A stretch of 64,000 nucleotides of DNA. Source: an uncultured Alphaproteobacteria bacterium (GTDB taxonomy: Bacteria; Pseudomonadota; Alphaproteobacteria; CAAHEQ01; UBA3637). The stretch lies in NCBI GenBank assembly GCA_949292205.1, contig CASEYR010000001.1:155530-219529 (forward strand), given 5' to 3'. The translations under genes and the position numbers were made by a program. Positions 19,391 through 43,737 of the stretch are shown piece by piece. The notes below the pieces were generated by a model. The model was not told the origin of the DNA and made no database searches. It was given only the letters and a program-made list of their open reading frames with translations. Position 1 is the stretch's first letter, and each line of letters starts with the position of its first letter.

Positions 19391-19420
19391 AGCCCCTGCT
19401 GAAAATAGCAGGGGCTTTTA
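19391..19420 (+). terminator. rho-independent terminator of dehydrogenase gene
   Basis: agcccctgc-tgaaaata-gcaggggct then TTTA. Confidence 0.6.
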
Positions 19421-19566
19421 CGATTTGAACGTAACACTACCCGCGTAAGCGGGTAGATGTAGACATACCAACCCAACCGTAAGGCTTACGGAGCTTTGGG
19501 GCTAGGCAAACGAAGTTTGAATAGGCTAATACCACTTGCGTTAGCGAGTGGAGGTTTATTTTTTGA
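19420..19566 (+). repeat. structured intergenic repeat family, copy 2 (full length)
   Basis: About 80% identical to copy 1, with compensatory changes in two stems (cccgc/gcggg versus cctgc/gcagg; caaac-gaa-gtttg versus cgaacg-t-cgttcg). Confidence 0.7.
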
Positions 19567-37550: not shown

Positions 37551-37646
37551 CATAAACTTCCACTCGCTAACGCAAGTGGTGTTATCTGTTCCGAACGACG
37601 TTCGCCCAGCCCAAAAGCTTCGCAAGCCTAACGGCTGGGCTGGTAT
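37551..37646 (-). repeat. structured intergenic repeat family, copy 3 (5'-truncated, reverse orientation)
   Basis: Reverse complement matches copy 1 from ataccagcccagcc... to ...gcgagtggaagtttat, lacking the first hairpin and the 9-nt duplication. Confidence 0.6.
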
Positions 37647-38496
37647 GTTAAAACATCATAAGATAAGATGGATCATGTCTCTTTTGACTCCTCATGATTG
37701 ATGGTTTAAATTAAATATAGAAATGAGTATATAAATACTTTTTTTAAAATGCAAGCAAAAAGTATTATCTCCTTATTTTTAGAGTTTTCAATGACATTGA
37801 TTAAAAACACGCGGTACATCCCTATACAATATCCTTTAAAGGTATATCCATAGCGTTATAGATATAAAGTTTTACAAAAATAAATATTAAAAAACTCCAA
37901 AAGAGTATCTTTTTCGTTTTTCAGGAAAGATGATTATAAGGAGATTTACGAATTGTGATACCCGTTAAAATCAATCCGAAATGGTTTTTTTTATTGTTTT
38001 ACAATTGGTTGTGTGGATTCGATAATTACCCTTGTAGAAAGAGTATATAGCTGTAAATTATCAAACTTTTGGGGTGTGTTTTTTGTAAAAAAATAAGTGG
38101 GATTAGCTTAAAAAAGTTGATATTTTTTTTATTTCTTGTTAAAATTGACTACCAAGATTTTATTACATCAAATATCACAAGAGGCACTATGAACCATTGG
38201 ACAGAACTAAGTATTGAATACGCAAATCAGAAAAGTTACTTAGATGATCTTTTCTCTGTTTATCCAACTATTCCAAAGGGTATTAGGGATATTAACCAGT
38301 TGATGTGGAACAAAGTTGAAACTTTTGTAATGAACGGAATAATGAGGAACTTGTAACTTCTTGTCATAAGGGCAGGTTTAGATGAATTGTTCAAATTGTG
38401 ATTGAAAGGAAAGGCTTTCAATTAAACGATATAAATCATCAATTTCTTTGAAATGATTAGCTCGGTATTCGCAAAGCACGCTGTACCAAAAATTGT

Positions 38497-38537: not shown

Positions 38538-38612
38538 CTGGTGACATACTACCGCTTGGATTCTAGTGACATACTACCGCTTGGATTCTGGTGACATACT
38601 ACCGCTTGCCAC
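38538..38612 (+). repeat. 3 x 25-bp perfect or near-perfect tandem direct repeats (iteron-like) upstream of pilin-like gene
   Basis: ctggtgacatactaccgcttggatt / ctagtgacatactaccgcttggatt / ctggtgacatactaccgcttgccac. Confidence 0.8.
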
Positions 38613-38903
38613 ATCTATATAAAAGGAATCTTTTGACAATCTATTTCCTTAACACCCCATTTCCTTGATTCCGTTGCCCAATTGGCTGACGTTAAGTTAA
38701 TATCTTTTGATTAACTATTATTAAGCAGAATTTTCATAATCTGCTCTTTTCTGACAAATCGTATTGTTGAAATCCGATCGTTCCATAAAAATGGAACTAT
38801 AACAAATTCTTTTTAATAAATGAATCTAAACATCACAAATCTATTGACTTTCAAAATGGTTTATGACATTATGAAAAAAAGTATTAACGGGGAGTATTTT
38901 GTT

Positions 38904-40322
38904 ATGCGTAAAGAACAAATCAGTATGGAATCCGGACGGAGTATGGTTGAGGTCTTGGGTGTTCTGGCTTTGGTCGGATTACTGACGATTATGGGAATTA
39001 TCGGCATATTCTTTGCCATTGACAAAAATATGGCTAATACCATTGTTCACGATTCAAAAATTGCTTTTATGGAGATGAAAACGCCGTCAACAAAACCCTC
39101 TTTAGAGTGGAGCTCTATTTTATTCCAGCCGGTTTCCCAAAAAACAATGACCGTTCGTCGTGATTTTTTAGGGCGAGATTTTGTAAAAGCCGACAATATA
39201 GACCAAGGCGTTTGTAGACAAATGCTGAGTATGCGGGTTGAAAATGTCTTGAACTTTTACAACTTGGATAATACCGAGATGACTTCGTGTCTTGAAACAA
39301 ATGATATTATTATAGATTGGAATGGATTTGGTCCCCCTGCCGTTTGTCAAACCGTGTCGGATTGCGATGTTCCGAATGAACCGCCTTTTGAAGGAATCTG
39401 CTCTGATCAGGGACAATGCCAAGCTTGCCCCACCTATCAAAAACCAAACGCGAATCGCACAGCGTGTGTTTGTGATCCGGAACAAGCCGTCACTTGCACC
39501 TTAAATCAGGAAAATTGGTGTTGCGGTCCGGATTTGATTTGTGGCGATACTGTCGGCGAATGTATTGAGTCAAACTATACATGTGCCTATAACTTTTACC
39601 CGAACGGAGCACCCGGCACAATCTTTTACACAGATTGTAGTTATGTCGTTTCCGATCAAAACAATGTGTCGGAATATGGCGGGGATTGCACCTATGTCAT
39701 TCAAGAAACCGGAGATTCCAACAAGTGGGTAGACGGCACGGGAACAGAGCAAACGATTTACAAACCAGCCTCCGGCAATCGTTTTGCAACAGCCGGAAAA
39801 GGATGTCCCGCCAATCAATATTGTGCCGTTTTATGGGTTGACGATGACGGCGTTTGGAAGGCCGGTGAAACCAAAACGGCTCCTAACAATGCAACCGGTG
39901 TTTTATGGGGAAAATGTCAAATGTTATCTTCCTATGACCAAACCCCTATCACAAAATACAAAAACGGTTACGGCTTGGTAACGGTTAATCAGGGATGTCC
40001 GGCAGATCAATACTGTGCCGTTTTATGGACGTTACAGGAATGGACACCCGATATACAAACGCCAAAGGCCCCCAATGATGCAACGGGTATTTTATACGGG
40101 CGGTGCCAAATGTTATCTGCCTATGAACAAGAACCGTTATCCAAAAATGAAGCCGGAAACACCCGTTATCAAGTGGTTCAGGGATGTCCCGCCAACACCT
40201 ATTGCTATCTGAATTGGGAAACGGATACCGATTGCACCACCGTTTCCAACGATAAAACAGGGACAATTTATGGGGCCTGTGCCCAACTGAACAGTCGAGG
40301 AACTTGCCCGTATGAGAAATAA
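38904..40322 (+). CDS. prepilin-like N-terminus, Cys-rich secreted protein with three ~60-aa internal tandem repeats
   Basis: GGGGAG RBS; MRKEQISMESG|RSMVEVLGVLALVGLL (Gly then Glu at +5, hydrophobic helix; Flp/type IV prepilin-like, atypical Arg at +1); repeats QGCPAxQYCAVLW...NxATGxLxGxCQMLSxYxQxP; stop overlaps avd start. Confidence 0.55.
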   Translation: MRKEQISMESGRSMVEVLGVLALVGLLTIMGIIGIFFAIDKNMANTIVHDSKIAFMEMKTPSTKPSLEWSSILFQPVSQKTMTVRRDFLGRDFVKADNIDQGVCRQMLSMRVENVLNFYNLDNTEMTSCLETNDIIIDWNGFGPPAVCQTVSDCDVPNEPPFEGICSDQGQCQACPTYQKPNANRTACVCDPEQAVTCTLNQENWCCGPDLICGDTVGECIESNYTCAYNFYPNGAPGTIFYTDCSYVVSDQNNVSEYGGDCTYVIQETGDSNKWVDGTGTEQTIYKPASGNRFATAGKGCPANQYCAVLWVDDDGVWKAGETKTAPNNATGVLWGKCQMLSSYDQTPITKYKNGYGLVTVNQGCPADQYCAVLWTLQEWTPDIQTPKAPNDATGILYGRCQMLSAYEQEPLSKNEAGNTRYQVVQGCPANTYCYLNWETDTDCTTVSNDKTGTIYGACAQLNSRGTCPYEK

Positions 40323-40710
40323 TGAGGTTCTGCCCATTTACATAGAGGCCTATAACCTAACCCAGGATATTTTTAAGAAAACCGTCAAGTTTCCAAAAGA
40401 ATACAAATTTTTACTGGGAACACAGTTGAACGAGGCATCAATAGAGCTATGCTGCCTGATAACCAACACCGCCAGAGCGGCTCAAAAATCAGTGTTGTTG
40501 GAAGGTATTTTAAACCAGTTGGATAAAATAAAAATTGAATTCAGACTCTGTGCGGATTTTAAACTGTTAAGCAACCAACAACAGGCATCCATAGCCACAC
40601 GTTTAGAGAAAATAACGGGACAAGCGATTGCCTGGTTGAAAAGCGAAAGGAGGAAACAATCCATAACAAGTATGCCGGAGTCAGGAACAACTCCGAGTTA
40701 TCCTGAGTGA
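40312..40710 (+). CDS. avd: accessory variability determinant (Avd)-like small protein
   Basis: 132-aa predicted helical basic protein immediately upstream of TR and RT, as in DGR avd-TR-brt cassettes. Confidence 0.55.
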   Translation: MRNNEVLPIYIEAYNLTQDIFKKTVKFPKEYKFLLGTQLNEASIELCCLITNTARAAQKSVLLEGILNQLDKIKIEFRLCADFKLLSNQQQASIATRLEKITGQAIAWLKSERRKQSITSMPESGTTPSYPE

Positions 40711-40808
40711 GCATTTTATTTTTTAATTTTAAAAGGGTCGATCACCGCCTTTTGATGGTAAACACAATAGAATCGACTGGTACCTTGGGCGAAGTCCCGA
40801 AAACAGGG

Positions 40809-40917
40809 CGTGCCCAGTGCAAATAATGCATATAACGTGAATCTTTCTTCCGGTGCGGTCAACAACAACAATCGTGACAACAACAACACCGCCCTCTGCG
40901 TTGGATTCTGAGCTTTT
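40809..40917 (+). other. DGR template repeat (TR), 109 bp, adenine-rich (AAC/AAT codon runs)
   Basis: Matches reverse complement of 42538-42646 at 98 of 109 positions; all 11 mismatches are A in TR. Confidence 0.85.
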
Positions 40918-40942
40918 GAAATTAAAATAGCATGATATTATT

Positions 40943-42310
40943 ATGGAACAACTAAACTTTTACGATTTAGTATCTGATTTAACATTACAAGAGGTCTTTC
41001 AGTCCTATTTGGATTGTCGTCGAAACAAACGTCGTAGTTTGTCTTCTTTGCGTTTTGAAAGAGAATACGAACATAATCTGATTCGATTGTATGATGATAT
41101 TATACGCCGACGTTATCAGAGCCGCCCCTCCAAGGCCTTTATTGTGGATAAACCAGTCCAACGAGAGGTGTTTGCCGCCGATTTTCGGGATCGGATTATC
41201 CACCACCTAATCATCGGGTATTTAATGCCCGTGTTTGAACGTATTTTTTTAAATGAATCATACAGCTGTCGCGTCGGAAAAGGGACTCTATTCGGTATTC
41301 AATCCTGCGCTCAAATGATGCAAATTTGTTCCAATCATTACACAACGGATTGTTATGTGTTAAGGCTGGATATTCACGGCTTCTTTTTTCATATAGATAA
41401 ACGTATTTTATATCGAAAATTGAAACAGTTAATCGATACGCAATACCATCATGTAAATAAATCGACCATCTTGTTTTTAATCCGAGAAGTGTTGCGCGAT
41501 AATCCGACTGAAAATTGTAAAATCAGCGGATCTAAAAGCGCATGGATTGGACTTCCAAAAACAAAAAGCCTGTTTTTCAGCGGCCGAAACAAAGGACTTC
41601 CCATCGGTAATCTGACCAGCCAAGTTTTTGCCAATTTTTATTTGAATGATTTTGACCATTATGTCACTGGGTTGGATAAAGATTTGTTTTATGGACGATA
41701 CGTCGACGATATCGTCATTATGCACCCCAGCCGGGAGTATCTGCTTCAAGTCAAACAACACATCGACACTTATTTAAGGCAAGAGCTGGGGTTAACATTA
41801 CACCCGAAAAAGGTATCATTACAACATTATGCCAAAGGGTTCGCCTTTGTCGGCGCCTATATCAAACCCGGACGCGTTTATCCTGGCAAAAGGTTGCGTC
41901 GATCATTTTATTTAAAGATGCAACACCTGAACACGTTATGGGAAAACAACACACAAAAAATGAACCGAGCGTTGCTTGAAAAGACGTTATCAAGCATCAA
42001 TTCTTATTTTGGGTTATTAAAACACTTTGACGCCTGGCGGATCAAATTAAAGGGATGGAATATGTTAAACGAACAAATCCGAAGTGTTTTTCGAACAAAT
42101 GAACGGTTAAACAAAGTCTGGATAGAGCCCCAAACAAAACGCCAGATGATTGATGATGCCCGAAAAATGTTCACAGAGCCACTCAGGTATCCCAAGAAAT
42201 ATAAAAATCTTGTCCAAAAATGGAATCGCCTGTCACCGGAAGAGGCACTCAAATCTTGTTTAGGTCCTTCTTACATCACGATACCAGAAGACGAAAAAGA
42301 ATCCACTTGA
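40943..42310 (+). CDS. DGR-type reverse transcriptase
   Basis: RT motifs including LPIGNLTSQVFANFYLNDFD (DGR hallmark IGxxxSQ) and FYGRYVDDIVIM (YxDD). Confidence 0.9.
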   Translation: MEQLNFYDLVSDLTLQEVFQSYLDCRRNKRRSLSSLRFEREYEHNLIRLYDDIIRRRYQSRPSKAFIVDKPVQREVFAADFRDRIIHHLIIGYLMPVFERIFLNESYSCRVGKGTLFGIQSCAQMMQICSNHYTTDCYVLRLDIHGFFFHIDKRILYRKLKQLIDTQYHHVNKSTILFLIREVLRDNPTENCKISGSKSAWIGLPKTKSLFFSGRNKGLPIGNLTSQVFANFYLNDFDHYVTGLDKDLFYGRYVDDIVIMHPSREYLLQVKQHIDTYLRQELGLTLHPKKVSLQHYAKGFAFVGAYIKPGRVYPGKRLRRSFYLKMQHLNTLWENNTQKMNRALLEKTLSSINSYFGLLKHFDAWRIKLKGWNMLNEQIRSVFRTNERLNKVWIEPQTKRQMIDDARKMFTEPLRYPKKYKNLVQKWNRLSPEEALKSCLGPSYITIPEDEKEST

Positions 42311-42430
42311 GATGCATTTGCATACTGTAATGCGATTGGAGAACGTTTGATTGACGCAACGACAGAGTGTGTTAAAACGATGTGGACAGGCGAAAGTGGA
42401 ATTGGGAAAAGAGGAAAAGACCGAGGATAG
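42311..42430 (+). pseudogene. decayed fragment of a C-type-lectin-like DGR target paralog, in frame directly after the RT stop
   Basis: Translates DAFAYCNAIGERLIDATTECVKTMWTG, compared with SAFAWCDAIGGQLIDITTECIKTTGTTG in the intact target (about 65% nt identity); no start codon. Confidence 0.5.
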
Positions 42431-42537
42431 CAGGGAAATAAAAACGGCCGCTTCGCGGCCGAGACCTGTCCGCCGGGGACGTCGGACAGGAAAAAAAGTC
42501 TGCCATAAAAGGCAGACTTAGTTAAAAAAATGTTAAT

Positions 42538-42646
42538 AAAAGCTCAGAATCCAACGCAGAGGGCGGTGATGCTGCTGTCACGATTGCTGGTGGTGACCGC
42601 ACCGGAAGAAAGATACACGAAATATGCATAAATTGCACTGGGCACG
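42538..42646 (-). other. DGR variable repeat (VR) at 3' end of target gene
   Basis: Cognate of TR; substitutions A->T x6, A->C x2, A->G x3 relative to TR, none at non-A positions; 3' 27 nt identical to TR. Confidence 0.85.
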
Positions 42647-42924
42647 TTTTGTGTCCATACCAAAGCACTTCCAGTCTCTGTTAAATTCGGGCACCCCGTT
42701 GTTCCGGTTGTTTTAATACATTCCGTTGTTATATCAATCAGCTGTCCCCCGATTGCATCACACCAAGCAAAAGCACTCCACCAATTCATATTAGTATTAC
42801 TTTGACAATAACGGGTGCCGTCCAAGCCCGTCACAACGGTTCCACTACCCCCCGCGCATGATTCGGCAACCGCCGATGTTGACAACAAAACAGATAAACA
42901 AATCATCCCTATGTATTTTTTCAT
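42544..42924 (-). CDS. DGR target: small secreted C-type-lectin-fold-like variable protein (126 aa precursor)
   Basis: Sec signal MKKYIGMICLSVLLSTSAVA; WSAFAWCDAIGGQL motif (CLec-like WxxAxxxCxxxGxxL); C-terminal 34 aa encoded by VR. Confidence 0.8.
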   Translation of the reverse strand: MKKYIGMICLSVLLSTSAVAESCAGGSGTVVTGLDGTRYCQSNTNMNWWSAFAWCDAIGGQLIDITTECIKTTGTTGCPNLTETGSALVWTQNVPSAIYAYFVYLSSGAVTTSNRDSSITALCVGF

Positions 42925-43092
42925 GGCAATACTCCTTTGCTATCCCCTATTCTATCCAATCCACCGCCGTATTGCAAGTATTTTTATCACGACATACACA
43001 AAAATTCACACTTCCTTATCAGACTCATCCGTATCTGACCCCCAGAAAGTTCCATTTTATGCCCTATGTTGATTTAACATACTAAAAAATTA

Positions 43093-43737
43093 TCAGCGTC
43101 CTAACTTTTCATACCGTTGAACCAATCGGGTATATTGGTCTTTTGTATACCGATGTTGAATGTTAGAGCGTGTTCCCGCAGAAGCAGAAAGCGGACTGAC
43201 AACCCGCCAAAAACCATTTCCATCTAACCGAAAAACCTCTCCCGTCAATGTTTTGGGAATAACACCTGATTTATCCGTTCCCTCTGCACGAATTGAATCT
43301 GATGTTAAAGCCGAATTTTTAAAAAACGTCATCCACTCTTGCCGAGTCATCGCATGATTATCAGATGGTGTATAATTTTGTAAAAACTCTTTTTCAAATA
43401 TACCACTCGGTAATTTCTTTTGTTGACGCGCTATTGCCAAAGCCTCTTTTACAGCTGAACGAATCCCACGTTTTTTATCTTTTTGAACGATATCTAAAAT
43501 AAAATCAGATTGGGCAAAAATTTGATTAAACTCAACCGATCTTGCCCCGATGTTATTATCATCAATTTCGGCAGAAAAGCTCTGTTTCGGATTGCTTTCA
43601 ACCCGTTTAACGTAGTCATCAAATGCTTTTTCCCCAGGTAATTTTGTATCGCCATTACATCCAACACCCAACAAAGACAGTGTCGCCATTGATAACGCCG
43701 CCGCCATTCCTTTAAATGATTTCTTTAACTCTGTCAT
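43093..43737 (-). CDS. lipoprotein, hypothetical
   Basis: Lipobox LLGVGC; 4-nt overlap with upstream ABC transporter gene. Confidence 0.5.
   Translation of the reverse strand: MTELKKSFKGMAAALSMATLSLLGVGCNGDTKLPGEKAFDDYVKRVESNPKQSFSAEIDDNNIGARSVEFNQIFAQSDFILDIVQKDKKRGIRSAVKEALAIARQQKKLPSGIFEKEFLQNYTPSDNHAMTRQEWMTFFKNSALTSDSIRAEGTDKSGVIPKTLTGEVFRLDGNGFWRVVSPLSASAGTRSNIQHRYTKDQYTRLVQRYEKLGR

Follow-up and report, generated by a model that had tools for sequence, protein, structure and literature searches.

The question raised by this locus is whether a pair of inverted near-repeats in a 64,000-nt stretch of DNA, which we call the window, belongs to a diversity-generating retroelement (DGR) that rewrites a gene of its host, and whether such an element is still at work. 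We recomputed the alignment of the template repeat (TR; 40809..40917, + strand), a non-coding segment between avd and the reverse transcriptase (RT) gene, with the reverse complement of the variable repeat (VR; 42538..42646, − strand), and obtained 98 identities over 109 positions, the figure that the sequence-only reading had claimed. All 11 mismatches fall at TR adenines, and their positions and base changes match those listed in that reading: A to T at 40823, 40825, 40834, 40835, 40840 and 40886, A to C at 40862 and 40865, and A to G at 40868, 40880 and 40883. With 30 adenines in the 109-nt TR, the hypergeometric probability that 11 of 11 mismatches hit an adenine by chance is 1.4e-7. Each of them lies inside an AAC or AAT codon, TR holding 11 such AAY codons in all, and the peptides translated from TR and VR agree with those given earlier. 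A repeat search of the whole window ranked the pair as its longest inverted repeat and the only one of this kind, with no further TR/VR copy in the 64 kb. VR itself consists of the last 33 codons of the target gene, the stop codon and a further 6 nt.

At the 3' end, the alignment departs from the earlier account. The identical block, put at 27 nt before, measures 31 nt (40887-40917) when counted after the last mismatch; since the adenine at 40888 is substituted in a second strain, the block that has never varied is 29 nt. This unmutated 29-31-nt segment, starting with CCGCCCTCTGCG, is the same in TR and VR. The proposal that it corresponds to IMH is sustained only in part: the block has a GC-rich start, yet IMH cannot be told apart from IMH* by sequence, so that the discrimination between donor and recipient must lie in flanking sequence. 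TR-VR homology continues 8 nt beyond the stop codon of the target (GAGCTTTT), and this extension is old coding sequence, because the ORF of a relative (L043) reads through it to end in ...CVGFRAF*. In every species compared, the homology ends just past GC(T/C)TTT, which fits a fixed start point of the cDNA. The composition of TR gives room for about 2e15 different proteins, counting 15 outcomes at each of the 11 AAY codons and 4 at each of 4 further codons, and no adenine substitution in it ever creates a stop codon.

The RT gene (40943..42310, + strand) starts 25 nt after TR and encodes 455 aa with an RVT_1 match at E = 1.3e-18. Its best match in the PDB was 8ub7 (a 328-aa RT, E = 1e-25), which we take to be the Bordetella phage bRT, followed by group II intron RTs at 1.6e-8. 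The IGNLTSQ of the RT aligns to IGSLTSQ of 8ub7 and its YVDD to YMDD, and with IGxxxSQ and YxDD both in place the protein is, as judged from sequence, a member of the DGR clade. Group II, retron and Drt profiles all scored far under their cutoffs against it, while 5448 homologues were found at E <= 1e-60. A literature search gave no match for the identifier 8UB7; a cryo-EM study of bRT-Avd is available (10.1101/2023.10.23.563531). In the Bordetella phage, a 140-nt spacer carries the priming site (10.1101/2023.10.23.563531), whereas the TR-RT gap here is 25 nt, so that any cis-priming spacer must overlap the RT ORF.

Upstream of TR lies avd (accessory variability determinant; 40312..40710, + strand), whose 132-aa product is an Avd-like four-helix protein. 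It matched NCBIfam DivGenRetAVD at E = 1.5e-11 over profile positions 1-103 of 104 (44.5 bits, cutoff 80) and Pfam bAvd at E = 4.5e-8 (34 bits, cutoff 40). Since both scores are under the curated cutoffs, we regard it as a divergent Avd; a precomputed bAvd call is present on the same gene in other assemblies, and its position and synteny are kept across the loci of relatives. Searching the PDB with the Avd sequence gave no meaningful match. The 98-nt gap between avd and TR is occupied by a structured RNA leader, which runs from the avd stop to TR (40705..40808, + strand) and was delineated with a 7-locus alignment and RNAalifold. The leader holds an invariant TTTTAAAAGGG and a stem GGGTCGATC/GAATCGACT around a small hairpin, and a second hairpin, GGGCG/TCCC, adjoins TR. 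In total 18 pairs were called, 6 of them with compensatory double changes distributed over two helices, a count drawn from seven loci that represent only about four independent lineages. These changes suggest that, like its counterpart in the Bordetella element, the leader belongs to a structured RNA of the DGR, with the conserved structure placed upstream of TR and not downstream.

The gene that would be rewritten (42544..42924, − strand) encodes 126 aa: a signal peptide with predicted cleavage after AVA, and a minimal C-type-lectin-like domain of about 105 aa. An AlphaFold2 model built with the family alignment reached a pLDDT of 90.7, and on the basis of this high-confidence model the target is predicted to be a secreted minimal CTLD, the classic DGR scaffold in the form of a single free domain with VR at its C-terminus. 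No match was found for it in Pfam and NCBIfam, the C-type lectin, FGE-sulfatase and DUF1566 families of Pfam included. A word-indexed search returned 45 homologues of 125-150 aa, and a profile search of 1.84 billion representatives returned 661 clusters, of which 515 reach E <= 1e-10. The members, nearly all 120-165 aa long, make up an unannotated family of proteins of about 130 aa, and their alignment features WW.AF.WC..GG.L, C..CPN, VWT and a final ALC. We infer for the diversified mini-lectin a role in binding a ligand, after export to the periplasm or the cell surface.

Two further features lie between the RT stop and VR. Directly after the stop, and in the same frame, is a remnant of the target gene (42311..42400, + strand) that covers target residues 50-77 (DAFAYCNAIGERLIDATTECVKT..G) with 63% identity by tblastn (E = 2e-9). 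A better-preserved remnant occupies the same spot in two related loci (L041 and L042), and the fragment may point to an earlier event in which the target was rearranged or inverted. On the − strand, 3' of VR, are two hairpins (42445..42519; z = -4.1). Hairpin 1 (42496-42519) has a 9-bp stem, AAGTCTGCC/GGCAGACTT, and a 6-nt loop followed by a T-run, and sits 18 nt past the end of TR-VR homology; hairpin 2 is at 42445-42461. All relatives have a hairpin at this position, 17-30 nt after VR, and its sequence is a different one in each (L005, L007, L009 and L036b among them). With the T-runs that follow it, the post-VR hairpin may equally well be an intrinsic terminator.

The same cassette recurs in relatives. 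Among species-representative genomes, the closest RTs share 57-65% identity and belong to MAGs of Alphaproteobacteria from the guts of ruminants and other animals. The gene order orf500 homologue-avd-TR-RT-mini-lectin is also found in L005, L007, L008, L009 and L043, and the relatives' own TR/VR pairs differ mostly at A: 9 of 10 differences in L005, 15 of 19 in L007 and 16 of 17 in L009, together with 11 A differences plus a 3-nt insertion in L043. The target is downstream of RT in all relatives, on the strand of RT in L005, L006, L009 and L043 and on the opposite one in L007, as in the window.

Taken together, the components, the adenine-only differences, the A-biased pairs of relatives and the leader support the DGR reading that had been proposed from the sequence: an RT, an Avd, a non-coding TR and a C-terminal VR in a lectin-fold ORF are all present, and the strain comparison described below agrees. 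We conclude that the locus is very probably a chromosomal DGR that diversifies a secreted mini-lectin by standard mutagenic retrohoming. Following established DGR biology, an RNA that reaches from the 3' end of avd through the structured leader and across TR would serve as template; the RT-Avd complex would copy this RNA into cDNA, placing random nucleotides opposite template adenines; and the cDNA would then replace VR at the 3' end of the convergent target gene. The codons of the target that are recoded comprise eleven for Asn (AAY) and four others with an A. Demonstrated here are the adenine specificity, the way VR behaves between strains, the identities of the components and the fold of the target; the RNA and cDNA steps, the priming site and the ligand are inferred.

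Comparison between strains bears directly on this reading. We recovered the same locus from other assemblies through exact-protein look-ups of RT and Avd. Three of these (L001, L002 and L004) are 100% identical to the window locus, while a fourth (L003, Logan SRR29999949), from an independent sequencing run, represents another strain with 97 mismatches in 6132 nt (98.4% identity). Its TR is identical to that of the window, and 15 positions, each a TR adenine (p = 1.5e-10), set its VR apart from TR. The sequence-only reading had predicted that VR would vary between strains at TR-A positions only. With TR the same, the window VR and the L003 VR indeed differ at 17 sites, and 17 of 17 are TR adenines (p = 3.7e-12); this comparison covers two VR alleles with this exact TR, at assembly level. 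Outside VR, the 6.1-kb locus shows ordinary substitutions of 0-3.7% without any tie to TR. An exact 35-mer across the VR 3' flank gave no match, and thus no further VR alleles, in a scan of JGI metagenomes.

The divergence is distributed very unevenly along the locus. The segment from avd through TR and RT to the spacer (40312-42537) carries 2 differences in 2226 nt, in sharp contrast to the flanks set against it (38579-40311 and 42647-43737), where orf500 has diverged by 2.6%, the non-VR part of the target by 2.5% and orf214 by 3.7%. A near-invariant core amid flanks diverged by 2.5-3.7% suggests that the core spread recently by recombination, transfer or a sweep. With 17 VR sites set against 2 of 2226 core differences, VR has been rewritten on the time scale of two substitutions, and the DGR was apparently active in the recent past.

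This last point weighs on the more durable of two rival explanations, namely that the TR/VR signature records past retrohoming by an element that no longer works in this strain. Many related strains have no avd-TR-RT core, having lost it or never had it, and carry VR-like sequence that is static; a decayed target fragment follows the RT gene; and the window VR is the same in L001, one of the fully matching assemblies. Yet the RT and avd ORFs are intact, with the catalytic motifs present, and the 17 variable VR sites between two strains with a nearly unchanged core speak against a relic, which we hold to be improbable. An ordinary inverted duplication of the gene 3' end, altered by neutral mutation or paralogue gene conversion with no reverse transcription, could appeal to the target paralogues and mosaic alleles in the clade (two paralogues in L036), which indicate that recombination between copies occurs, but it is effectively refuted by adenine specificity, as all 11, 15 and 17 differences are confined to the 30 adenine positions of a single copy (p 1e-7 to 4e-12), this copy, rich in A, does not code for protein and has an Avd gene on one side and an RT gene of DGR type on the other, and the same pattern is seen in five related species, so that we give this explanation almost no weight.

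Accepting the locus as a DGR, we turn to the strains without its core. Loci lacking it were found via homologues of the target or of orf500 (L031/L032, L033, L034, L036 and L037). In these, a convergent mini-lectin gene lies 5-213 bp after the orf500 homologue, with no avd, TR or RT between the two. The flank of L033 is 98% identical to the window, which places it in the same species. The L031 sequence is homologous to the window as far as 40291 and again from exactly 42538, where VR has its 3' boundary; a copy of a dispersed repeat of about 150 nt fills the gap. Assembly collapse of the TR/VR repeat was considered as an origin of the core-less structure and rejected, for the left junction is in unique sequence: the C-terminus of orf500 differs there, and L031 and L033 share a distinct segment between the genes. 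In addition, ENA and Logan assemblies agree on the core-less structure.

The VR-like regions of some core-less strains retain the adenine signature. Set against the window TR, the VR of L031 differs at 13 adenines and at 4 other positions; those of L034, L036 and L037 have indels in the AAC run as well, and the C-terminal region of L033 is not TR-like at all. One of the L036 targets (L036a) and that of L037 have almost the same VR and different 5' ends, the reverse of DGR-positive strains, in which the 5' end is the same and the VRs differ. L036 has two target paralogues, and mosaic target alleles exist in the clade. It is conceivable, and we put it forward tentatively, that the avd-TR-RT core is a module gained or lost at a pre-existing two-gene locus within one species. 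Roux et al. 2021 contains no text on Alphaproteobacteria, nor on gain and loss.

The second gene of that locus is orf500 (38820..40322, + strand), which encodes a Cys-rich repeat protein of 500 aa as an ORF, or 472 aa from the likely true start at 38904. The orf500 stop and the avd ATG overlap by 11 nt. The protein contains three repeats of about 63 aa (GC..QYC.L.W...ATG..YG.CQMLS) and belongs to a family of only 9 clusters, whose G-R-S-M-V-E N-terminus and more than 20 Cys never vary and whose members have 2-5 repeats. In 9 of 9 clusters, G|RSMVE and a hydrophobic stretch are invariant, a motif-level likeness to the class III signal peptide; we read this N-terminus as a putative prepilin-type signal, with G at -1, E at +5 and a hydrophobic alpha-1 helix. 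The AF2 model is weak (pLDDT 58) and has a long N-terminal helix at 14-58. Sequence searches of Pfam, NCBIfam and the PDB found no match to orf500, Foldseek against the PDB returned nothing under E = 0.3, the N-terminal 87 aa matched only eIF3L, by chance, and a literature search for GRSMVE gave no match. The gene always adjoins the mini-lectin gene, with or without the DGR core, and is upstream of avd where the core is present; from this constant adjacency, orf500 possibly works together with the mini-lectin. Whether orf500 could itself be a second target was also considered, and the idea was rejected for want of similarity to TR.

The wider neighbourhood encodes Der, BamB, an SDR, tRNA-Leu, an MsbA-like ABC exporter, a XerC/D-like recombinase and PriA. 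Given these housekeeping neighbours, a phage origin was rejected and the element is taken to be chromosomal, not phage-borne. Several other features were observed in the same region. The dispersed repeat of about 150 nt, REP- or MITE-like with three hairpins, occurs in the window at 1509-1663, 19412-19560 and 37552-37648 (inverted), and also next to the target in L031, L034, L036 and L037, with a copy at the very place where core-less strains lack the DGR core, its copies being 81-100% identical; against Rfam it had no match at the gathering threshold. A 95-aa ORF at 38069-38356 (+ strand) aligns to the Tsp45I restriction-enzyme profile (E = 2e-16) over no more than the profile's first 44 positions; it is probably part of a broken gene, in a region upstream of orf500 that is variable. 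Finally, orf214 (43093-43737, − strand) matched no family, and its N-terminus (LLGVGC) resembles that of a lipoprotein; the gene overlaps the beginning of the one for the ABC exporter, and no other gene has diverged as much between the window and L003 (3.7%, with 9 of 19 changed codons non-synonymous).

How does the element compare with known systems? With the DGR of Bordetella phage BPP-1 (mtd-avd-TR-brt), it shares the RT clade, the IGxxxSQ motif and the Avd partner, a TR of about 110-134 nt in which AAC codons occur, the placement of VR at the C-terminal end of a protein with the C-type lectin fold, the GC-rich start of the non-mutated 3' block and a hairpin after VR. It differs from BPP-1 in being chromosomal and not phage-borne, in having its target downstream of RT on the opposite strand, in the nature of that target, a free 126-aa secreted domain and not a tail-fibre tip, in having IMH equal to IMH*, and in an RT of 455 aa with a C-terminal extension of about 130 aa. 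Closer in setting are the cellular DGRs of Legionella LdtA and Treponema TvpA, which likewise diversify exported CLec-fold proteins (PMC5758913), whereas the target described here has no match to the Pfam families by which targets are classified, and its host lineage is that of uncultured animal-gut Alphaproteobacteria. The features seen at this locus are within known DGR variation, as the survey by Wu et al. 2018 documents each of them: 48 cassette architectures, some elements in which IMH and IMH* do not differ, indels opposite AAC, and inverted repeats in no more than 34% of DGRs (PMC5758913). The Bacteroides DGRs that diversify adhesive tips of type V pili are likewise gut-associated and cellular, involve a pilus-type protein and come with evidence of horizontal spread, and their VR is within the pilus-associated protein itself (10.1101/2024.11.15.621889). 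In contrast to these, the prepilin-like orf500, assigned as a pilin from its N-terminal motif alone, carries no VR, and the diversified protein has a small gene of its own.

The element is therefore a DGR of a well-known kind, and only the presence/absence polymorphism and the conserved orf500 partner exceed a routine DGR call. It leaves the knowledge of how DGRs work unchanged, and it adds a clean DGR in the poorly known uncultured Alphaproteobacteria of animal guts. Its target is about the smallest free-standing lectin-fold protein able to carry a VR, from an unannotated family of more than 500 clusters. If gain or loss of the core at a pre-existing two-gene locus is true, the clade would be a natural series of a DGR capturing and abandoning a target, and it would be suggested that the mini-lectin and orf500 make up a surface adhesin of two parts. 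The strains that have the core at this locus and those that lack it could be used to probe what a DGR contributes in vivo and how its targets are recruited.
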